A DNA stretch of 63,541 nt, filler included, from Globobulimina sp. (Eukaryota): NCBI GenBank assembly GCA_003354225.1. It is 8 parts of 8 records of this genome, joined end to end, with 100 filler letters (N's around TTAATTAATTAA, not from the genome) between each part and the next. Parts side by side here need not be neighbours in the genome. Positions count along the whole stretch, not along the records: positions 23,961 to 31,821 come from PIVH01000114.1; 7 more parts are not named here. One strand, written 5' to 3'. A program made the translations under genes and the position numbers. Below, piece after piece: positions 2,619 through 55,739 of this stretch. The number at the start of each line of letters is the position of its first letter. Within the stretch, counting starts at the first letter, position 1. The notes under the pieces were generated by a model. That model worked only from the letters and a program-made list of their open reading frames with translations, made no database searches and was not told the DNA's origin.

Positions 2619-2791
2619 TTTGTGTCAGTGTTGTTTGGTTCTAAAAGTCCTGGAATTCCTAAAAACGACATGTACAATGATTTTGAAAATTAGTTTAATT
2701 TTAATATTACACACTGCGTTTACTTTGTTCATTTTGTAACTGTACGTACCTAAAAGTTTTTGTTTCTACTCTACATCTGACATTTGCGACC

Positions 2792-5230
2792 ATGTCGTCG
2801 GGTAGTTTCCCCGATGTGTTGCCTGAAATGAACATCCACGAATCAAACGGTGAAGTATCAGCATCGATTCAAGAAACAAACCGTGTCCGAGCCTTATTAG
2901 GATTAAAACCATTAAATGTATGTAGCAAATCCTTACACCACTCATTAATCCATACATTCACTAACACACTAAACAAAAAACAGGTTGGTTCTGCATCTTC
3001 CTCTCATTCAAAATCGAAACATAACAATAATGCCGCACAAGACACTCCAAATAGTAACAAAGTAAACAAACCACGCTCAAATGTGGATGAATTAGAAAAA
3101 TTACACTTAAAATTATCAACCAAACACAAATTAGAGAGCACAATGCGAGGTATCAGTTTAGCGCAAGAGTTACAAACAAATAGTTTAGAAAACTATTCTG
3201 CTGCGGATTGGGTCAAAAAATCCAGGCAATTGGAAAAAAAACAGAAAAAAGAAAAGAAACTGCAGTTATATGAGGAGGAGGAGGAGGATGACATTGTGAT
3301 TGATGACATTGACAGTGAGGACAGGAAACACTTAAAAGGTAAGATTGTGAATCATGACTTGTCCTCTTTTAAAAAGGGCGAAACAAAGATATTAATTCTG
3401 AAAGATTCAAAGATTTTAGACTCAAATTTAGATCTCAACCAAGAAGAGGACGAATTGATAAATGTTGAAATGTATGAAAACGAAGTCAGACAAAAAAAGG
3501 CCAATCAAATTGAAAATATTAAACGAAACAGAAAATATGACCCCTTTGACGAGCAGAATAATGATGAATTATTACCGCAGTATAAAGAAAAGAATGATAT
3601 CACCAAAAATCTAAATGCATTTACTTTGAACGAACAAGGAAACATCGATAAAAATGCGCGAAATAATAAGATTTTGGCAGAGTTGAATGATTTGGATGGA
3701 AATGAAAAGAAAAGAAAGTTCATTTCGTATGATTTGAGCGATTTGAGTGCCAACACAAGAATCGAGAGTGATTATATTGTGACATTTAAAAAGAAAAAGA
3801 AAAGAAAGAAGAAAAAAAGAAAAAGGCAACGTGAGCATGGCAATGATAGCAAGCGTGCAAAAAAAAGGAAAATTGAGATTGACGGCGATATTCCCATCGA
3901 GTTAGCCGACGAATATAAAGGAAAAAAATATGCATTTTTAGATTCAGCTGAAGTTGCTACAAATAAATCCTTTGGAAAACGAGATGAGATATTAAATGCA
4001 TTGAAGTTATCAGAGATGGAAGAGGCCAAAGAAAGGGAAAGAATGAAGAGGTACAATACGGCGTTATCCAAAGCAAACAAATCAATGATTGCGAACTTAG
4101 CAATGAATGAGATATTGGCGGAATTTGCGAAGGGGGAAGAAAGTGAAGAGGATGAAATATTTAATAATACATTGCAGCGGGCACAGATATTAGGCGCTAA
4201 ACAATTGAATGACGACGGCACTCAAACAAATACAGAGAAAATATTGGAGGAAAACGAAAATGAAAATAACAAAATGATGATAGATGACGAGGACGGCATC
4301 ACTGTGAATATAACGAGTCAATTCAGTGATGGTTTAAATAATGTCATTAATGAAATGAATGAGTATGAAAACGACATGATTCTGCAACAGCAGCAACAGC
4401 GAGAAAGTGAGCAATACGACATTGAGCATGCAATGATCGTCGACAATGAGCATGGCAATGATAAGGACCATGCGGAGGATGGTGGATGGATTGAATGCGA
4501 TAATGACGAGAATAGAAATAAAATCAAAGCGAAGGAGACTGGAAAGGCAGAGTCGGAGCCGGAGCCGGAGGCTTTGGATGCGTCCATATTGGAGCGAGAG
4601 CCGCTTGTTTGTCACAGTATGGCGGAGACCATGTTGCATATTAAAAGGAGGGGCTATTTGGAGAACGAAGGTGGCGAAGAGAGTGTCGATGGTGTTTCGA
4701 GACTGAGCTCCGCAAATATTGGTATTTCGAAACAGAAGAAAGAAGAAATAAAGAAATGGAGTGTGGAGAAAGTGCTTAAATGGTTGAAAAAGAGTGACAA
4801 TTATTTATATCAGAAGTTCCGAGAGAACTTCTTATTGAAAAGAATTGATGGTTTGCAATTGTTGAATTCTTGCAGCAGTTCCTCTTTTTTGCGAGGCGTC
4901 ATTGGAATGGGCAACAATGAGTATGATATCAGTAAATTTTTTAAGATTTTAGGGGAATTATGTGGCGATCCGGCACCAGATATTAATTTAACTCACAATG
5001 ATGATTATGGACAACCGATGACTGCAAAGGAAGCGTTCAGGAAATTATCGCATAAATTTCATGGCAAAAAGTCTGGTCCGAAAAAGGAAGAAAAAAGAAT
5101 TAAGAAAAGAAATATTGAGTTACAAAGGAAGATTAATAATTATATTGATACTCCTTTGCAAACCTTAACAAAATTGAAACAAACTACGGAAACGTTGAAT
5201 AAACCATTTGTTGTTTTAGATAAACATTGA
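2792..5230 (+). CDS. SART1: U4/U6.U5 tri-snRNP protein SART1/Snu66; probable in-frame 66-nt intron 2918-2983
   Basis: HIND motif SIQETNRVRALLGLKPL; C-terminal DDYGQPMTAKEAFRKLSHKFHGKKSG; GTATGT...AAACAG intron. Confidence 0.9.
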   Translation: MSSGSFPDVLPEMNIHESNGEVSASIQETNRVRALLGLKPLNVCSKSLHHSLIHTFTNTLNKKQVGSASSSHSKSKHNNNAAQDTPNSNKVNKPRSNVDELEKLHLKLSTKHKLESTMRGISLAQELQTNSLENYSAADWVKKSRQLEKKQKKEKKLQLYEEEEEDDIVIDDIDSEDRKHLKGKIVNHDLSSFKKGETKILILKDSKILDSNLDLNQEEDELINVEMYENEVRQKKANQIENIKRNRKYDPFDEQNNDELLPQYKEKNDITKNLNAFTLNEQGNIDKNARNNKILAELNDLDGNEKKRKFISYDLSDLSANTRIESDYIVTFKKKKKRKKKKRKRQREHGNDSKRAKKRKIEIDGDIPIELADEYKGKKYAFLDSAEVATNKSFGKRDEILNALKLSEMEEAKERERMKRYNTALSKANKSMIANLAMNEILAEFAKGEESEEDEIFNNTLQRAQILGAKQLNDDGTQTNTEKILEENENENNKMMIDDEDGITVNITSQFSDGLNNVINEMNEYENDMILQQQQQRESEQYDIEHAMIVDNEHGNDKDHAEDGGWIECDNDENRNKIKAKETGKAESEPEPEALDASILEREPLVCHSMAETMLHIKRRGYLENEGGEESVDGVSRLSSANIGISKQKKEEIKKWSVEKVLKWLKKSDNYLYQKFRENFLLKRIDGLQLLNSCSSSSFLRGVIGMGNNEYDISKFFKILGELCGDPAPDINLTHNDDYGQPMTAKEAFRKLSHKFHGKKSGPKKEEKRIKKRNIELQRKINNYIDTPLQTLTKLKQTTETLNKPFVVLDKH

Positions 5231-6627: not shown

Positions 6628-7297
6628 ATGGAAACCACATCAGGATATCCGGGAGGAGATGCAAAAGAAGAATGGAGACGTTTATCGGCAGAGAAATGTT
6701 GTTGTAATACTAGCTGCAGTTGTTGCACCTTATCATGCTGCGGTTTATTCATATTAATTCTATGGATAATATTTGGTGCATTCGGCGCATATTCAGCCTA
6801 TGTCACTTTAGGTTTAGTAAATGATTCATTTGTTTCGGGTTCTTGTTGTCAAGGAACTATTTGTTGGGATGAATGTTGTGTTGGTACTATTGAAAGTTTC
6901 GGGTATCAGATTGCCACACAATTCCAAGGAATGACATGTGAAGAAGTTGAGCCCGCTTATACAATAACAATGATTGATAATATTCTTGCGGTAATTGCTG
7001 GCATATGTGGTGTTGTTGGTATTTGCGCCTTTATTTGGTGTATGTTACTCGTTCCTTTCGCTTACTCCATAATTACAATCATTATCGCCGCCATAATTAT
7101 GTTTGTTTTGAGTGACTATGAGAATATTACGAATTATTTTGGTTTTATATTTGCTGGTTTGATCGCATATTTATTTTTTATGAATTTTAAAATTGTTAAG
7201 TTTTTATGTATATACGTATTTGATAGGTAATTTATCAGCTATTCTCTCAATAATTTATTATATACAGATGCGAGATGCTGTAAAAGGGAATCCTTAA
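6628..7297 (+). CDS. Cys-rich multi-pass membrane protein; exons 6628-7194 and 7268-7297
   Basis: About four hydrophobic segments with Cys clusters; phase-0 GTTAAG...TACAG intron. Confidence 0.6.
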
Positions 7298-7911: not shown

Positions 7912-8011
7912 NNNNNNNNNNNNNNNNNNNNNNNNNNNNNNNNNNNNNNNNNNNNTTAATTAATTAANNNNNNNNNNNNNNNNNNNNNNNNNNNNNNNNN
8001 NNNNNNNNNNN
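7912..8011. other. Artificial contig linker (also 15900-15999, 23861-23960, 31822-31921, 39774-39873, 47715-47814, 55640-55739)
   Basis: N44-TTAATTAATTAA-N44, stops in all six frames, recurring about every 7.9 kb. Confidence 0.99.
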
Positions 8012-8143
8012 GATTACGAGCGATTAATAAATGCATGTATGAGGGAAGAAAAACAAAATGGTACAATTGCACGCACTGCAAACAGATTAAATTCTGATCA
8101 GAATTTCAAAAAACAAATCAAAACAACATATTGAAACAGGTTT

Positions 8144-15630: not shown

Positions 15631-15999
15631 TTAATTGAAGAAATGTACATACCAAAAGTTGCAATAATACTCATCAAATGAAGCCGAGCTGTCTTGTCCC
15701 ATGAGACCAAGGTAGAATTGGTGTTAGTATTACTGAAAATTAATGCTAATTAACGTATTTTTAGAATAAAATTACGGAATTATGAAATTATAAACAAACT
15801 ATATTTGAAAGTGCTACTGCATGGAGGCGAATTTGAAACTTTCGAAAGTGAACAACAAAGTACAAAAAAAGTCAAAACTTAAATTCTACTCTTTGCTTAN
15901 NNNNNNNNNNNNNNNNNNNNNNNNNNNNNNNNNNNNNNNNNNNTTAATTAATTAANNNNNNNNNNNNNNNNNNNNNNNNNNNNNNNNNNNNNNNNNNNN

Positions 16000-23749: not shown

Positions 23750-24212
23750 ATTTAATATAATTTATATAATTAACTTTTTCATCCTCATCATCAAATGTTA
23801 CATTAACAATGACTCGGTCATAGGGATTAAATGGCACTGCAAAACCAAAATTTTGGAGCANNNNNNNNNNNNNNNNNNNNNNNNNNNNNNNNNNNNNNNN
23901 NNNNTTAATTAATTAANNNNNNNNNNNNNNNNNNNNNNNNNNNNNNNNNNNNNNNNNNNNCAAACGGGGAGAAATAAAATCTATTCAATTTAATTTAAAT
24001 TAATGGTAAACAAATAGAATACCAATCAATAACAATTAATTTATGGTACAATAATCCATAAATAATTAATAAAACCCCCCGTTACCCGTAGGTTTGTATT
24101 TTTATTTTAAAAACCTGTGGCCGTTAAAGGAATTTTGAAATGAGCGTAGTGGATAAAAATGCTATTTAATAATTTAAATTAATTAATTTAATTTGTTGTA
24201 TACCGCTCCATA

Positions 24213-25415
24213 TTACCAGTTTTTATAATTTATTTTTGTGGCCCAAGGATCATACACTTGGCCAACAATTTTATTTGCATCATTAACAGAATTTAAATGT
24301 GGATGAAGCAATTCACAAACAAATATAATAAAATGCTTATCTTTGTATCGCATATATCTATAAGATACATGTGGTAAATTTGCCGGTTTCCATCCTACAT
24401 ATTTTAAGATTTTAGGATGCGGAATGCGGTTATTATTGGCCAAAGAGGCTCCGCCAATTCTAAATGAGTATGATGTATATCTTTTTGCTTCTGATAATTT
24501 ATTTAATTTAGTTATTTCTTTTGGTATAGCTGCAAATAATTTGGTTGTCATATTGACATTATTAGTGAACCTAAAAACGTTTGAATTTGGCGTTAAATCA
24601 AAATGAGGATTATTTGCAGCATATATCTTTTGACGAATTAAAAATACTTTAAGTAATAAATATGGATTGAAATAATTACATGGACATATTTTGGTAGTGC
24701 CTGGAATATATTTATGGTAACACCTGGAATCACCAACGATTACTTTTTTTATTACTTTTTTATGTTTTTGATTTTTGTAAGATAAGATAAATAAAACAAA
24801 GTGGTTTTTCTTCTTCTCTTTTGGGTGTCTAACATGCAAAATATGTTTTAACTTAAGTCCGAATTTGGTTTTGCCGGTGGAACATACGATAAACTCACAC
24901 GGTCTTACCATTGTAGCAAAGTATAATTGCGCCAAAGTTACTTTCATTAAATTATTTAAATTTATCGTATTAAGATGTTTTCCATATGCTTTATAATAAT
25001 GTGTATATTTAATTATATCTTTTAATTCATATGGCAGTCTGCTGTCTGACTCTGTACCATATTCTTTTTTCAAACCTGATTTAAATTTACTAAAATCTCT
25101 ATTTTGCGTCCAATTTATAGGGCTATTTTTTAAATCGCATAACCAAATTAATGTCGATTGCCACATATCAATTGATGCTACACTTCCTAATTGGAGTGTT
25201 CTTTCAGAAAACCAATATGTTGCTAATAAAGGATCCAATGGCATTTCCAATGGGTCTTCATCAATTAATACACAATATTTTGCCCAATTTCTTAAATTTG
25301 ATACATAGTGTGTTTTGGTTAAAATACATTTATCAATTTTTCTAATTTTTACAATATGATTTGTATTTTTTGGATCTTTTGGTGCGATCCTATTATTTGA
25401 TAATCTAACTCGCAT
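24213..25415 (-). CDS. Tyrosine recombinase of the retroelement
   Basis: LYFATMVRPCEF (catalytic Arg), SYKN (Lys), RYTSYSFRIGGASLA, KYVGWK...SYRYMR (Tyr nucleophile). Confidence 0.9.
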   Translation of the reverse strand: MRVRLSNNRIAPKDPKNTNHIVKIRKIDKCILTKTHYVSNLRNWAKYCVLIDEDPLEMPLDPLLATYWFSERTLQLGSVASIDMWQSTLIWLCDLKNSPINWTQNRDFSKFKSGLKKEYGTESDSRLPYELKDIIKYTHYYKAYGKHLNTINLNNLMKVTLAQLYFATMVRPCEFIVCSTGKTKFGLKLKHILHVRHPKEKKKNHFVLFILSYKNQKHKKVIKKVIVGDSRCYHKYIPGTTKICPCNYFNPYLLLKVFLIRQKIYAANNPHFDLTPNSNVFRFTNNVNMTTKLFAAIPKEITKLNKLSEAKRYTSYSFRIGGASLANNNRIPHPKILKYVGWKPANLPHVSYRYMRYKDKHFIIFVCELLHPHLNSVNDANKIVGQVYDPWATKINYKNW

Positions 25416-26152
25416 AAATTCTAATATTGATAATATATATTTGTAAAAATTACATTTTTAAAACAAAAGTGATTGGTTGAAAATAACAAACAAATATAAC
25501 ATAATACAATAACGCCTTATGCGATTAGTAAATGACAATAATATATTGTAAAACTAAAGGCTTTTTAGGTTTCGTTAGAGTGTAACAGTTTTTTTTTCAA
25601 AATTAAAGATAAAAAACAACTTAGTCAGTTTCTTCAATAAAGAAGGGAAACTTGACAAAGCTGAAAGAGACGGGGCACATAAACCCTTTGTTAACATAAA
25701 TCGATCATCAACTATTATTTGAATGAGATGATTTTTAGAAGATTGCAATTAAATAGATACTATTTATATGCTTAGTGATAGATTTATAAATAAATGGACA
25801 TTTTAAACAATTTAAATGGCAAAGAACTATTTAAACAAATTTATAAACACATTTTACTGAAGATTTAAGAATTATAAATAACATAAAATTGAGTAACATT
25901 TTAGGGAATGTTGACACAATAAAATGGAATAAATGACTCAAATTAAACATTTTTTAATGATCAATAATAAGAATCAACTCAAATAAGACATAATTATGTG
26001 AATTTCACGTTAATTAAACATTAAATTCCGCGACAAAAAGACTATTTTAAATGATAAACAATGATTAAAATGATCAAATTATTGATAATAATGATTGTTT
26101 TTAAATGAATTTTATATTAATTATATACCAAAAACATTAAAATTGTATACTC

Positions 26153-27994
26153 TCATACATGCATATAATATTTATACGGAGAATTTGCACGAATATTTAA
26201 TGGTTTTTTAAGCCAATTAATGAAATTTTTGTATTCAATCATGTCATTTTTATAATGCATTGCTTTATTTTTCAGAAATTGATAACGACCAAAATATTCA
26301 GGTCTAATTTCATTTAATTTTAAATTAAATGTCTTACATAATTTATTAAAATCATTCATATCAAAACGTGATAATCTGTCTGCTAAATAATTAAATGACG
26401 AAGGAATCCATTCAAATCTTATAAATATTTTATATTTAATCATTAATAAACACATTTCAAATACAAAAATCATTAAATTATACGAAGGAGCCCATTTACG
26501 TACCATTGTGTAATAACACGTTGAATTATCAATATATAATTGTAAGGATTTACCTGTTAACAAATGTTTATGTGTCTCGATTAATGTTAATACGCAATGG
26601 GCTTCTTTCTGATTTATGGATAATTTCATATCATTGCTGTTAAATTTATATTTCGCGAATACTGAATCTACGACGTATCCAGCTCCATAATCACATGCAT
26701 CTGTCGCAGCGTATACATTTATTGATGGATTATTTAAAATTGTATACATTGACACAATTTTTATATTATCAATATATTTTAACCAGAAACGTAAATCATT
26801 TATGACTGAAATTGGCAGAATTATCCACCACGATTTTTTAAGACGACCATTTCTTACATTTTTATGAATGTACGCCAAAGAACGATATGCCAATGCTTTT
26901 GTGGCACGATTTAATTGACTCCAATGCATAATTTTTCCTGTTAAGGACTCAAGAGCTCGACCAGTGGCTATTCGATATTTTATCACCAATTTTATGAAAT
27001 ATTTTAACTCTTTCAAGGCCTTTTGAGGTATGGCCAATGTCTTATTCTCTAAATTCCAATAAATTCCATGTAACTGTGCTTTTGTAACACAATCAATGGA
27101 TTTATGCTTTGATACTTTAACTTTTAATTCATCCAATAAATCATCGAATAATTTTGTTAATAAAAAACACTCAGATTTCGACTTTGCTGCAATTACAAAA
27201 TCGTCAATATGTACTAACACGCAATTAATTAAATGCTGCTGTTTTTCGTTTAAAATGCAATTATTTAATATCCAGATCAAAATAGTTGAAAAATATTGGG
27301 AATTTCCAGGGGCTGAAGAAACACCATATGGTTGACTCCGATCCCTAAATCGAAGACAAAATATGGAGTAACCAACAAAATCAGCATCGTTTTCAGGTAA
27401 TTTAATCTGTCTAAAAAAGTCAGATAAATCTCTTAACGAAATATATCTATGATTTATAAGCAATTTTGTGTAGGTTTTCAAATTTGGCAAATCACGCATT
27501 CCACATTTTTCCTTTCGAATATACTCATTTATGGAGGCTTTGCCGCTACATTTATACGAACCATTTCTTATGACTCTAATTTTTGTATATAATCCAAATT
27601 GATCTTTTTTAGGAATGCCGAAGATCATTAATACATATTTTGGATTATAATTTATTGGCTCTATCTGACCATTTTTACATTCTTCCGTCAATTTGTCAAT
27701 ATAAGCAGTGACATCTTCGACAGAATTGACCAAATTATGAACTTGTGTTGAAAGGTCAGAGGGCTCCCACCCTTTATTGTGGAAGGTTTTCCATAAAGGA
27801 AAGCCATTTTCGATAAAATGGATTTCCAAATTTCCATTTTTTTTTGTTTTTAAGTATTTTTTAAACGCTTTTATATTGAATTTTTTCTGTTTTTTAAAGC
27901 CTTCAGAATGTAATTTTTGTAATATTTTTACTTTTGAGGCAATTACAGTGTCGATTTCTATATTTAAAATGTACTGAAAAGTAAGAATGTGCAT
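26153..27994 (-). CDS. Reverse transcriptase-RNase H of the retroelement
   Basis: RDLSDFFRQI, QPYGVSSAP, VHIDDF, LESLTGKI, DLRFW; RNase H motifs ATDAC, INQKE, IDNST, WIPSSFNYLADRLSR. Confidence 0.93.
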   Translation of the reverse strand: MHILTFQYILNIEIDTVIASKVKILQKLHSEGFKKQKKFNIKAFKKYLKTKKNGNLEIHFIENGFPLWKTFHNKGWEPSDLSTQVHNLVNSVEDVTAYIDKLTEECKNGQIEPINYNPKYVLMIFGIPKKDQFGLYTKIRVIRNGSYKCSGKASINEYIRKEKCGMRDLPNLKTYTKLLINHRYISLRDLSDFFRQIKLPENDADFVGYSIFCLRFRDRSQPYGVSSAPGNSQYFSTILIWILNNCILNEKQQHLINCVLVHIDDFVIAAKSKSECFLLTKLFDDLLDELKVKVSKHKSIDCVTKAQLHGIYWNLENKTLAIPQKALKELKYFIKLVIKYRIATGRALESLTGKIMHWSQLNRATKALAYRSLAYIHKNVRNGRLKKSWWIILPISVINDLRFWLKYIDNIKIVSMYTILNNPSINVYAATDACDYGAGYVVDSVFAKYKFNSNDMKLSINQKEAHCVLTLIETHKHLLTGKSLQLYIDNSTCYYTMVRKWAPSYNLMIFVFEMCLLMIKYKIFIRFEWIPSSFNYLADRLSRFDMNDFNKLCKTFNLKLNEIRPEYFGRYQFLKNKAMHYKNDMIEYKNFINWLKKPLNIRANSPYKYYMHV

Positions 27995-28329
27995 TAAATT
28001 TAAATAAAAACAACATTAAAAGCAACATAATATGATACATATTATGTACACAATATTTAGATTACACGTAAACGAATACGGTATTTAAAAGGTAAAAATT
28101 TAAAGAAAGAATATTAAAAATGCAATTTTAGTACGAATACATGGCATTACTTAGCCTTTTTTAATCAAATTCAAATATATTTATTAATCCAAATCAATTT
28201 TATACATTAATATAAATATTAATATTAACGGAATGAAGAATCAATTGATTGACAATAACATTTAATAAAATGAGCAGAAATGATAAGGTATTAATAAATA
28301 ATCAGTGAATACTCATAATAATAATACAG

Positions 28330-29390
28330 TCATTTTAAATCGCAATTTATTAGCGGATGGTCTTTATCTGGATGTAAAACACAAGTATGCTCTTTGGCAC
28401 ATTCCTTTTTTGCCGCTTTTTTGCAATAATTATATGCATTGAAAAAAGAGCAATGTTTTCCACTCACTTCGAACTGTACTCCTTTTTTCTTACATATATC
28501 AATACATATTTTATTTGCATGATACAGTGATTTGTTTCTATCTTTATTTGGCGGTCTGCGATTTTGTCTGTTATATGATGGATAAATTTGTTTTTGTTGT
28601 TGTGGATTGTTCCAATTTTGGTGATAATTTTGATTATTTGCATAATTAAAATTTGTGTTATTAGGATGTTGGGGATAATTATTCTGATTATTATGATTTG
28701 TATTTGTTGGGAAATTTGTTGGCGTAGCTGTTGGTTTTTGCGTTGGTTTGGATAATTTATGGAATTCCTCTGAATCAAAACTGTTAAATTGCGATGATAA
28801 CAGTGAACATAACGAAGTATTTGAATACAAGCTAGATTTTGCTTGCATGAAATTTGAAGAAAATACAACAAAATAAGAATGATTTATTGATATCGCGTGT
28901 TTAAATCCTGAATTCATCCAAATATACATCGATGATGATGATATTTTTGGATTTTTAATTTGAATCAATATTAATTCGGCACATTTATTTAAATCAAATG
29001 ATTTATACGCACAAAAAGTGCGTATTGTACGATGTAATAATGACTCTTTTCTATTTTTAGGTATTATGGTATTTAAATTATCCGTTATCTGTTTAATAAA
29101 ATGAATTATAAATTTAATGATATTAAATGCATTCCATTTATTTTTAAATAATGATTTTAATTCTAACGTTGCTGATTTATGATCGATATTTTTAATGTCC
29201 GGATTCAAATATTTCATTATTTTATAAGCTAAGTCATAAAATGTGAATGTATCATATACGAAGCCACAAATAAATAAAATCAATTCAATTTTTATGGAAG
29301 TTTTATCTGATTTCGATATTATTTGATGTAACTTACTCGAATTTGATGGAGAAAGTATTTTTATTAATTTTGATAAATTGAAATTTGAAT
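28330..29390 (-). CDS. Gag-like region with C-terminal Cys/His zinc finger; predicted second exon spliced to ORF1
   Basis: Frame open from 29400 with no early ATG; C-terminal CSFFN...C...C..EHTCVLH...HPLINC resembles Ngaro-type gag fingers. Confidence 0.7.
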
Positions 29391-29703
29391 CTAAACATTT
29401 TTAACAGCAAATATTGGTTTTTATACAGACACCAAATATTTTTAGATTAAAAAACCGCATTGGTATTAATCTTAAAAACTTTTTTAAAATGAACCAGCAG
29501 AATAACCCATTACCACATTGGCGGATGTTATAAATATGGCATGTTGTTTGAATGTATAATGTTATAAAAAAGTATACAAACAAACAAAACAATCAATCGT
29601 AAGAAGTGGGGTCCGCCCACAGACTCAGCGCCAGAAAGTAAAGTGAGTAATGTACAAAATTTGTAACATAGAATAGAAACAAAGTATGTACACAACAAAA
29701 TAC

Positions 29704-31573
29704 CTTCTAATTCTCTTACAATATCTTCACCTGTTTTTCTCTTTCCTTGTTCGTCGAACGTTTCATTTATTAAAGTATTTAACATTTGAATATTTTTATT
29801 TTTCTCTTTTTTTAGGGCCAAATCGATCATACACAGAATTGGATCCTGCTTTTTTTCTTTATCGACACCGAAACCAATGATATTATTTGTATTAACATAT
29901 TGAATACATTCGAGAGTATTTGGATCGTCGTTATCGTAATCAAAACGTGGTTTGTTTGAATACTGCTTCTTATCTTCAATTTTTTTATTTGATTTGAATT
30001 TATCATTAATCTCTTTTGTCATATCTTGTCTCAAAACTTGTAAATCATCGATGGTCACTGGCTGCGCTCCTTTATGGTTATGGTTGCGCTTAAATTGACG
30101 ACCTTTATTATCATAATTGTCTGGTTGATGAGCAGCTGGTTCATCTAAGAAAGTGATTGTACGCCTTTTCTTTTTTGGTGGCGAGTCAGCGTAAATGGAG
30201 GAAATATTACGTTTATTACTTAAATCTGGCGACAAATCTGACATTAAATCTGGCGATAAATTATCAACGAGTTTCGATGGAATTATTCTATTTAAGAGCG
30301 ATGTTCTGTATTTTCTTAAATTGATAACATTTTCATGATTATCAATGATTTTTGCCTGAAATAAATTCTTTTTTATAGTGATTCGCATATCTTTGTAAAT
30401 ATTATCAAACATTTTTGGAGGTATTGCTGCGAATGCAATGATATAAGATTTGATTGGATTATTTGGGGGAGTTTCAATTGAAAAATTGAACATTATTATA
30501 TTTGCTATTATTGCTGATATGACGCTGGATCGTTTTACTTCGGAATGATACGCTTGAACTGTATCTAAATTATATTTTTCATATTTTAATGCATTAACAA
30601 AGTTATCAAAGTTTGTATTATGTGATTTATTGTTATCAAATTTATGGATGTTCATCATATTAATTATATTTGACGATTGTTGGGAGATATTATCTAAGTC
30701 CATTTGTTGCGGCAATTGTTGAACGTCTGGCGAATTAGAATTTGATTTGGGGACTAATTTAAAATCATTCTTAACTGGTTTTGGTTTCTTAACTGGTTTT
30801 GGTTTGATAATATTATCATTTTTTAACATATGCGAAAATGTCTGAGAATACGATGGGGATAAATTTGAAGGCAATGAATAAGACATGCCATTGTATAAAT
30901 TATCTAAATTATCAACTTCAACAAAGTATTCGCTATCTGAGATTTGAAGATTGTTTACATTTTTATTCGAATTACTATCACCCCCTTTATCTATAAAGGT
31001 TAACCAATCATATTTTCGTACGTGTTTATATGCTTTATATTGATTTGATTCTTTATATTTATCAAATTTATCTTGTTTAAACTCCGAACAGCATAAATAT
31101 ACTAAATCGGAAATACAACGCACTGTCATGGCTTCATTTGATATGGCTCTTTTTGTAGTGATTAAAGCGAATAATTTTAAAGAATCGATTGGAGTGCGGG
31201 CTGAAGTGGCTAGAAAATAAATAAAATTATTCTCCATTTGCGCATAATTTAATAACAGGGCAATTTCATATTTGTTAAAATATAACTCCGGTTTGGACGA
31301 CTCGGAATTTTTCAAATTATTTTTGGCGAAGTTAATACGCCAATTCTTTTGACTTAATGTTGCAATTTCTGTTGGATTTACTATGGTAATATAATTTTCA
31401 ATATTTATGTCACCATATTTAAAGGAAGATTGTTTTTCCTCTTTATCTTGTTTTTCTTCTTTTTTATTCTCTTCGGATTTAGGATTATTTTTATTTTCAT
31501 TATGTGTATTATTCCTGCTTTTTACTTTTAATTTTTGTTTTTTAGAAGCAACTTGATTTGAATCATCTTCCAT
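29704..31573 (-). CDS. ORF1 / shared 5' exon of the retroelement (623 codons plus 1 nt); the unspliced frame runs on to 29528
   Basis: ATG at 31573 (MEDDSNQ); Asn/Lys-rich; donor GAAG|GTATTT at 29703, after which the composition becomes intron-like. Confidence 0.65.
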
Positions 31574-31921
31574 ATTGCTATTTGATTGGAAGCGACTTAG
31601 GTTATGCTGTTTAGGCAAGCTTGTGATATTTGCGTTTTTTGTTTGTTAATATAACGTTTAGTTTTGTGTTGTTTCTTTTTTGCAGAGTCTAGGCGTTAGG
31701 CGAGGGTTAGCAAAAAAGTTTTGTTGTTTTTTATAAAGATACTTAAAAAACACACACTTGCACACTTTGACACAACTCAAAATAAACAGATCATCTGCAT
31801 TACATTTGATGATATGATGTANNNNNNNNNNNNNNNNNNNNNNNNNNNNNNNNNNNNNNNNNNNNTTAATTAATTAANNNNNNNNNNNNNNNNNNNNNNN
31901 NNNNNNNNNNNNNNNNNNNNN

Positions 31922-39429: not shown

Positions 39430-39873
39430 GTTTTACTTAATGTTATTAAATTCGAAAACGTTTTTATTCGATCGTGAATCATTTTTATTAAAAGCGTATA
39501 ATATTATGTTAACAGCCGAATGAATGAAACGGAAAGTAGACGAAATTTCAGATTATTGTACTTATATTGTAAACGATTTGATTTGTCAATCATCAAAAAC
39601 TAAACTAAAATATAAATTAAAATTACATTGACATTAGCATAGACATAGAGCTAAATAAATTATAAAACAATACAAAAACAAATATAAAAATATATATATT
39701 TTTTATATCAGCAAATTCAGAAGAAAGCAAATTAAATTATTAATTTATTGACCCAATTGATGCAATAATTGCTNNNNNNNNNNNNNNNNNNNNNNNNNNN
39801 NNNNNNNNNNNNNNNNNTTAATTAATTAANNNNNNNNNNNNNNNNNNNNNNNNNNNNNNNNNNNNNNNNNNNN

Positions 39874-47714: not shown

Positions 47715-47814
47715 NNNNNNNNNNNNNNNNNNNNNNNNNNNNNNNNNNNNNNNNNNNNTTAATTAATTAANNNNNNNNNNNNNNNNNNNNNNNNNNNNNN
47801 NNNNNNNNNNNNNN

Positions 47815-55496: not shown

Positions 55497-55586
55497 TGGC
55501 GGAGGGGGTGGGATTTGAACCCACGGTACGCGTAAACGTACAACAGATTTCGAGTCTGTCACCTTCGGCCGCTCGGACACCCCTCC
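55497..55586 (-). tRNA. trnS: tRNA-Ser(CGA), bacterial type with encoded CCA
   Basis: Acceptor stem GGAGGGG/CCCCTCC-G-CCA; anticodon arm ACAGA-CTCGAAA-TCTGT; long variable arm; GGTTCAAATCC T-loop. Confidence 0.95.
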
Positions 55587-55739
55587 GTGGGTGTTCTGTT
55601 TGGGAGAACCTTTATAAAGTCTTTTGCGCTTTTTTTGCANNNNNNNNNNNNNNNNNNNNNNNNNNNNNNNNNNNNNNNNNNNNTTAATTAATTAANNNNN
55701 NNNNNNNNNNNNNNNNNNNNNNNNNNNNNNNNNNNNNNN

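Follow-up and report, generated by a model that had tools for sequence, protein, structure and literature searches.

How can a retroelement translate its replication enzymes when its open reading frames (ORFs) are separate from one another and partly devoid of an ATG? The question is raised by an element at positions 24213-31573, minus strand, of a 63,541-nucleotide (nt) stretch of Globobulimina sp. DNA (assembly GCA_003354225.1), which we call the window and along which positions are counted. In order of transcription, the element carries an upstream frame (ORF1) and frames for a Gag-like zinc-finger protein, a reverse transcriptase (RT) with an RNase H-like region and a predicted tyrosine recombinase (YR). 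An earlier note on this DNA had proposed that the last three are expressed by alternative splicing from a shared 5' exon. We analyzed the frames, their candidate splice sites and the relatives of the element. One donor joined to alternative acceptors is the simplest reading of a conserved phase-1 donor at the end of ORF1, of gag, RT and YR exons that end in stop codons, and of the missing ATGs; we put the probability that the whole three-way scheme with a shared donor is correct at roughly 60%.

The four ORFs lie on the minus strand without overlap. Measured from stop to stop they cover 29528-31645 (ORF1, with an ATG at 31573), 28330-29400 (gag-like), 26153-28015 (RT) and 24213-25457 (YR). They are separated by gaps of 0.3-0.7 kb, of which the 0.7-kb RT-YR spacer contains no ORF. 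The spacers carry stops in all frames, so that neither read-through nor frameshifting can link the ORFs. The candidate donor GAAG|GTATTT (29696-29709, minus) ends the first exon at 29704 and begins an intron at 29703 in phase 1; the coding part of ORF1 up to this site (exon 1, 29704-31573, minus) measures 1870 nt, i.e. 623 codons plus one nucleotide. The candidate acceptors, all on the minus strand and in phase 1, are TGTTTAG|AT for gag (AG ending at 29391, exon from 29390), AAATATAG|AA for RT (AG ending at 27958, exon from 27957) and TCAATATTAG|AA for YR (AG ending at 25421, exon from 25420), and the G of each AG occupies codon position 1. In-silico joins imply introns of 313, 1746 and 4283 nt and yield products of 976, 1224 and 1025 amino acids with one terminal stop apiece. 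Unspliced ORF1 encodes 681 amino acids: read-through into intron 1 (29391-29703, minus, 313 nt) adds a 58-residue hydrophobic tail that ends at a stop at 29528-29530 and differs in composition from exon 1 (charged fraction 0.05 vs 0.28; hydrophobic fraction 0.60 vs 0.29).

The gag frame lacks an ATG in its first 61 codons. The RT frame has one at 27992-27994 (minus), 12 codons upstream of the acceptor codon, and the YR frame has one at 25413-25415 (minus), two codons after the acceptor. A competing phase-0 TTTTCAG (27971-27977, minus) lies 14 nt upstream of the RT acceptor. The four non-overlapping ORFs, the four splice sites, the three in-frame joins with their product and intron lengths, and the ATG-free start of gag were all as the earlier note had given them. 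Its reservations were equally well founded, namely the ATGs of RT and YR (27994 and 25415), the phase-0 TTTCAG before RT (here TTTTCAG, ending at 27972) and implied introns far longer than the candidate introns of the host.

We collected 19 related loci (L001-L019) by scanning metagenomes with an RT alignment; a scan with a single RT protein gave nothing, and viral-contig and genome-contig collections scanned with the RT alignment returned no match. Five loci (L001, L002, L003, L005 and L017) are on contigs named in the PJEL01 series, whose lengths agree with the size ranking of the window pieces and which presumably belong to the assembly of the window; the others come from other assemblies. 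The sister element L002 has all four ORFs in the same order and is 76-78% identical to the window copy in RT, 47% in gag and 34-48% in ORF1 (240 of 621 aligned ORF1 residues).

In L002 the donor GT and all three AGs keep the position and phase that they have in the window copy. Its ORF1 ends in ELES followed by a stop, with the donor GAAA|GTTAAT at the codon position of the window donor, and the counterpart of the ORF1 tail contains three in-frame stops. The split codon behind ATCAG|AT is exactly where similarity in gag starts; the frame is open from one codon before it, and its first methionine is at codon 131. The RT acceptor CCAG|TG falls on the codon of the window acceptor, the ATG of the window RT frame is not conserved, and the first methionine comes 84 codons past the conserved anchor. 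The phase-0 TTTTCAG is absent and no AG of another phase occurs before RT, and we rejected this site as a conserved RT acceptor. The YR acceptor GTTAG|AA is likewise at the window's codon, whereas the window ATG is replaced and the first methionine follows 59 codons on; in L001 this ATG is kept. Across the ORF1 alignment of the two copies, a phase-1 GT is common to only two columns, the terminal one and codon 455.

Conservation in the YR frames bears on one rival, coincidence. AT-rich frames open near the start of coding, and an in-phase AG is expected nearby: the window copy by itself has 1, 2 and 1 AGs between frame opening and the start of conservation in gag, RT and YR, and AGs whose G falls at codon position 1 are more frequent in these frames than those of any other class. 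We aligned the first codons of 14 YR frames with MAFFT (window, L001-L005, L007, L009-L011 and L014-L017; the contigs of L006, L008, L013, L018 and L019 include no YR). In one column a phase-1 AG is present in 14/14 frames, compared with 7/14 for the next-best column and a background of 259 such codons among 4362 in the YR bodies (5.9%). Nine of the 14 were aligned at full length, with identities to the window YR of 22-54% for the eight that are relatives. The residue at the acceptor column varies (E/A/G/D), and the preceding base is always A, which in L017 is the last base of a TAA stop. The 20-30 nt upstream of the acceptors end in YAG and are mostly pyrimidine- or AT-rich. L012, outside the alignment, fits the pattern when read by eye. 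The donor, moreover, is conserved at the exact end of ORF1 homology. Coincidence as the source of these sites seems to us extremely improbable.

In all 13 RT frames with a start inside the contig, a phase-1 AG occurs at either of two aligned places (L001, L004, L012, L014 and L016 are cut; L018 and L019 were excluded). Relative to a conserved anchor, the AG is at -26/-28 in seven frames and at -30 to -36 in ten (-44 in L013, which has an insertion). MAFFT spreads the second place over adjacent columns, and the RT statistic is weaker than that of YR. Before the anchor, 8 of the 13 frames have no ATG. Among the YR frames, an ATG within two codons after the AG is found in 4/14, and in the other 10/14 the next ATG is 23-116 codons on. 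In the gag frames, a phase-1 AG lies 0-17 codons after the opening in 7/7 cases (window, L002, L003, L005, L006, L009 and L017).

At the 5' side, four of five upstream ORFs end in a phase-1 GT (...E/Q-(G/S)) that precedes the stop by 0-3 codons, or by 58 in the window copy. The donors of the more distant elements are GAAG|GTTTAT in L003, with the stop three codons on, and CAAG|GTACGT in L009, with the stop at the next codon. The earlier note had regarded related copies without phase-1 AG/GT sites as an observation that would overturn its proposal. The proposal withstood this comparison: the sites are kept at the YR, RT and gag acceptors (14/14, 13/13 and 7/7) and at the donor in 4/5 elements, with L005 as the exception.

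The matching phase of donor and acceptors also bears on a rival in which the AGs are real acceptors for some other 5' exon, either an upstream leader or ORF1 donor or a trans-spliced leader on a polycistronic transcript, and no 623-residue fusion is made. Acceptors conserved at each ORF start would fit it, as would the ATGs within two codons of the AG in four of the YR frames, which a leader-type splice predicts, and the second shared phase-1 GT at ORF1 codon 455 (AAAC|GTAATATT in the window). However, a non-coding leader needs no fixed acceptor phase, yet phase 1 was found everywhere examined; most frames are without an ATG downstream of the AG; four of five upstream ORFs finish with a cis donor whose phase matches; and the codon-455 GT is in a poor context in L002. 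We regard this alternative as quite unlikely.

From these patterns, in-frame splicing very likely occurs. The ORF1-gag intron is in all likelihood real, and RT and YR are probably accessed through their conserved AGs. For these two frames, use of the ORF1-end donor, as expected for gag, is suggested by phase. Under the shared-donor scheme, a single primary transcript would start upstream of ORF1, and its one phase-1 donor (29704|29703) would be joined alternatively to the three phase-1 acceptors. The resulting three messenger RNAs would fuse a common 623-residue N-terminal module to the zinc-finger Gag (976 amino acids), to RT-RNase H (1224) or to YR (1025). The enzymes would thereby be tethered to a structural or nuclear-targeting module, in the manner of Gag-Pol elsewhere, with splicing in place of the frameshift or read-through that tethers Pol to Gag in other elements. 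Acceptor distance may set the protein ratios, with most use expected for the nearest acceptor (313 nt) and least for the distant pair (1.7 and 4.3 kb). Unspliced RNA would be the reverse-transcription template, and the introns would persist because that RNA serves as template; both this role and that of the shared N-terminal module are proposed on the logic of the scheme.

Several observations weigh against the shared-donor scheme. In the window copy RT and YR each have an ATG, which means that fusion is not forced here, and in this copy alone the in-phase sites are hardly more than chance, the excess coming only from the relatives. The RT acceptor statistic is not unique, as columns in the RT body with conserved K-E/K-D pairs reach 9/13 and 8/13. 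The upstream ORF of L005 has no phase-1 GT in its last 60 codons; its best donor, GTC|GTGAGC, is in phase 0 and would match a phase-0 AG before gag, whereas none of the AGs before RT agrees with it. L002 has decayed, its RT and YR carrying frameshifts, and GTTAAT makes a weak donor. Host candidate introns, predicted from in-frame ORF joins on other contigs of the window, are GT..AG introns of 51-147 nt with donors GTATGT, GTATTT or GTATGG and acceptors YAG. The element donor GTATTT is of this kind, a point in favor of the scheme; the implied element introns would be two to thirty or more times longer (1746 and 4283 nt for the longest two). No fused long proteins were found with an RT or YR query, and the one ORF1 homologue is unfused, both weak objections given that most database proteins come from intron-blind gene calling. 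Finally, an element that retains its introns must protect its template RNA from splicing in some way, and no means of doing so is evident here.

Part of this evidence favors a rival in which only the ORF1-gag intron is real and RT and YR are translated from their own ATGs, on full-length RNA or separate transcripts, with their AGs unused or unneeded. It would draw on the window ATGs at 27994 and 25415, on near-start ATGs in 5/13 RT and 4/14 YR frames, on the RT column statistic, and on 1.7- and 4.3-kb introns in a host with short candidate introns. It leaves unexplained why the YR AG is at one aligned codon in 14/14 frames despite a varying residue, it offers no usable ATG in 10/14 YR and 8/13 RT frames, and the spacer stops bar any linking by read-through or frameshift. 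We consider this rival unlikely.

Further observations concern intron 1 and the ends of the RT frames. A block at 29591-29638 (minus) within intron 1 is conserved with L002 while the surrounding intron has diverged, and similar blocks occur in the RT-YR spacer. Speculatively, the intron-1 block might be a cis element that is present only in unspliced RNA and marks that RNA. The RT ORFs of the window (26153-26160, minus) and of L002 (6196-6204) end in Val-stop (GTATGA and GTATAA); the GT is donor-like but in phase 0 and gives no in-frame join to the phase-1 YR acceptor. In L005, L010, L011 and L014 a phase-1 GT falls within an Arg codon (C|GTAAAT, C|GTGAAG), 13 nt short of the final coding base of RT, and an in-frame RT-to-YR splice would be possible in these four. 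A phase-1 GT at the RT end was also seen in L001 and L002 at non-aligned codons and is not conserved in the window, L003, L007 and L017. A serial four-exon polyprotein (ORF1-gag-RT-YR) was considered and rejected: both the gag and the RT exon terminate in a stop, and neither has a conserved phase-1 donor there.

ORF1 is basic and hydrophilic, and its PPKKKRR at 30161-30181 (minus) resembles a classical nuclear localisation signal. It has only one homologue (731 amino acids, unfused) among 1.84 billion representatives, and it had no Pfam or Atlas match. The gag-like exon (28330-29390, minus) contains a C-x8-C-x7-C-x3-H finger (28387-28452) and a further C/H cluster (28342-28383) followed by the stop; the finger is C-x8-C-x5-C-x3-H in L002, and more distant relatives end in C-x-C-x4-H-x4-C knuckles. 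A zinc-finger end of this kind fits a putative nucleic-acid-binding Gag.

The RT-RNase H exon (26153-27957, minus) includes an RVT_1 domain (27077-27616), the motif HIDD (27200-27211) and an RNase H-like region (26498-26707). The match to Pfam RVT_1 is significant (E 8.7e-9, 35.8 bits; cut-off 29.6), and RT_RNaseH scores 21 bits, below its cut-off of 24.8. The RT ORF has 36 relatives in the protein collection, with precomputed annotation of PF17917 in 8/36 and PF13456 in one. Among 24 RT relatives the HIDD motif, 33 invariant columns and a D..E..D..ADxLSR pattern are conserved. Only 70 residues follow the end of RNase H (motif ADRLSR), which leaves no room for a methyltransferase. Neither a methyltransferase match nor, at E <= 0.1, an aspartic protease family was found by Pfam in any of the four ORFs.

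The YR exon (24213-25420, minus) carries the catalytic-type motifs RPCE (24894-24905), SFRIGG (24450-24467), GW (24384-24395) and SYRY (24354-24365). No Pfam recombinase family matched it, alone or as nine family members. An AlphaFold model built on the nine-sequence alignment (predicted local distance difference test score, pLDDT, of 76) matches Cre over both domains (Foldseek E 1.7e-7, template modelling score 0.52-0.65), followed by XerH, lambda integrase and Flp. Over the box II region, a profile built from the nine YRs matches the PDB integrase 3nkh (E 0.011). Their alignment has invariant columns for R, E, K, W, Y and H, and thereby keeps the Arg, Glu, Lys, Trp and Tyr expected of the catalytic set. 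By this modelled structure, the last ORF is a tyrosine recombinase with a Cre-like fold. The domains and their order support the DIRS/Ngaro-like character that the earlier note had recognized. Since gag, RT/RNase H and YR follow one another without a methyltransferase, the element is assigned to the Ngaro rather than the DIRS1 type. It is thus supported as an intact-looking Ngaro-type YR retrotransposon, an assignment made from gene content and order.

The window consists of eight contigs in falling order of length (7911 to 7802 nt), separated by 100-nt linkers of the form N44-TTAATTAATTAA-N44 at 7912-8011, 15900-15999, 23861-23960, 31822-31921, 39774-39873, 47715-47814 and 55640-55739. Because the contigs are joined artificially, the neighbouring pieces are not genomic context for the element, which is the sole occupant of its 7,861-nt contig (23961-31821; element on the minus strand, linkers on both sides). 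The element is flanked by a 5' non-coding leader upstream of the ORF1 ATG (31574-31821, minus), presumed to be a promoter or terminal region, and by a 3' non-coding end (23961-24212, minus), both cut by the contig ends about 250 nt beyond the ORFs. We found no terminal direct or inverted repeats and no end overlap on this contig or by comparison with the relatives, no similarity of the leader to the element's 3' end or to the relatives, and no second copy elsewhere in the window. The other pieces contain eukaryotic genes of the usual kind, for a formin FH2 protein, an SNF2/RING helicase, SART-1, an MBOAT protein and a MATH-domain protein. The SART-1 homologue, a tri-snRNP (small nuclear ribonucleoprotein) component at 2705-5230 (plus) on another contig, indicates that the host possesses a spliceosome. 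A transfer RNA gene at 55500-55586 (minus) is the only Rfam match in the window.

Three relatives have peculiarities of their own. The 8,133-nt contig of L003 has identical 119-nt ends (1-119 and 8015-8133) and closes into an 8,014-nt unit, which could reflect a circular form, tandem copies or collapsed terminal repeats. Between its YR stop and the beginning of ORF0, about 0.5 kb is non-coding, as much as both non-coding ends of the window contig together. In L002, a 35-nt unit occurs as two exact repeats (7185-7256) at the point where the decayed YR frame breaks off. In L009, a marine-metagenome relative, four short GT..AG introns of 52-64 nt interrupt the upstream ORF and gag (350-2085) in addition to the 222-nt ORF0-gag intron. 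All four are in phase 1, which favors the splicing scheme, with donors GTATGT or GTTAAG and CACAG-type acceptors; the third donor was taken as the GT two bases downstream of the one initially listed.

Such intron-rich copies lead to a further rival, in which the family moves or persists as DNA, by Crypton-like use of its recombinase or as a domesticated multi-exon gene cluster, and introns are merely tolerated. The kept introns (up to five upstream of RT in L009), the terminal repeats that were not found and the self-closing L003 contig with its 119-nt overlap are in keeping with it. On the other side, the frames for both RT and RNase H have stayed intact and conserved, introns gained passively would not be expected to share phase 1 throughout, and at least six diverged lineages occur on PJEL01-named contigs if the window copy belongs there, the decayed L002 among them, a pattern typical of proliferating elements. 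We judge this rival very unlikely.

Beyond the window copy, the shared-donor scheme could be one case of a lineage-wide architecture in elements of AT-rich and marine protists, in which all introns are in phase 1, any donor can join any acceptor in frame, and Gag, RT-RNase H and YR fusions arise by alternative choice of the 3' splice site, with only unspliced RNA being copied, perhaps by means of a signal in intron 1. We see this generalization as evenly poised between true and false. If the scheme is true, it would explain how separate, ATG-less ORFs are translated in recombinase retroelements. Attachment of replication enzymes to a structural protein would have a third mechanism, in addition to frameshift and read-through. 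The scheme would further mean that some retroelements keep several spliceosomal introns, raising the question of how their template RNA escapes splicing. Gene callers that are blind to introns break these elements into orphan ORFs, and the conserved phase-1 AG offers a simple annotation rule.

No description of natural splicing in DIRS or Ngaro elements was found in the full-text literature searched, a scope outside which the founding Ngaro papers fall (Goodwin and Poulter 2004; Poulter and Butler 2015). The available portions of PMC8547959, PMC13465315, PMC7192593, PMC6681497, PMC3783388, PMC9940879 and PMC5890265 mention none, and the intron that appears in the accessible text of PMC7192593 is an artificial one serving as a retrotransposition marker. 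As no description was found, the splicing-based shared-exon scheme would be new for Ngaro-type YR elements, and an earlier description is possible.

Ngaro elements are the closest counterpart. In the available portions of PMC8547959 and PMC13465315 they are described as having gag-like, RT/RNase H and YR genes in separate ORFs and no protease, DDE integrase or methyltransferase. The present element shares their gene order, their separate ORFs and the lack of a protease, a DDE integrase and a methyltransferase. It differs by an extra 623-codon ORF before gag, predicted to be joined to it by an intron, by conserved phase-1 splice sites before every ORF and by long spacers. The split direct repeats (A1...B1A2B2) that define Ngaro elements were not found on the element contig, whose ends cut the termini, and the 119-nt overlap in L003 fits any terminal-repeat or tandem arrangement.

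DIRS1-like and PAT-like elements have a methyltransferase after RNase H, and DIRS1 has overlapping ORFs, inverted terminal repeats and an internal complementary region, according to the parts of PMC13465315 and PMC6681497 available. These groups and VIPER have RT/RNase H and a tyrosine recombinase, and the present element has an RT with an RNase H-like region and a predicted tyrosine recombinase. Unlike DIRS1-like elements, the present one shows no methyltransferase, no ORF overlap and no inverted terminal repeats, the last point being limited by the contig ends. VIPER has its YR ahead of RT, whereas YR is the last ORF here.

Outside the YR class, retroelements must export unspliced genomic RNA despite their splice sites, as the accessible part of a study of Cer1 states (PMC10309623), and BARE makes a separate spliced RNA for Gag (PMC3735527, available portion). 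The logic proposed here, read from sequence alone, is that of retroviral-type splicing, with one donor, alternative acceptors and introns kept in the unspliced template; the element belongs to the YR class and not to long terminal repeat (LTR) elements. In retroviral-type systems the donor usually sits in the leader or just a few codons inside gag, and Gag-Pol arises through frameshifting or read-through. Here the donor would follow 623 codons, so that all products would share a long N-terminal module. ORF IV of the pararetrovirus rice tungro bacilliform virus (RTBV) and foamy-virus Pol are also expressed from spliced RNAs, in RTBV by an in-frame join of a short 5' ORF to ORF IV. The element would likewise remove a long intron to reach a downstream ORF, whereas those viruses belong to other classes and use a single splice each, with no large coding exon common to all enzymes of the kind that exon 1 would provide here.

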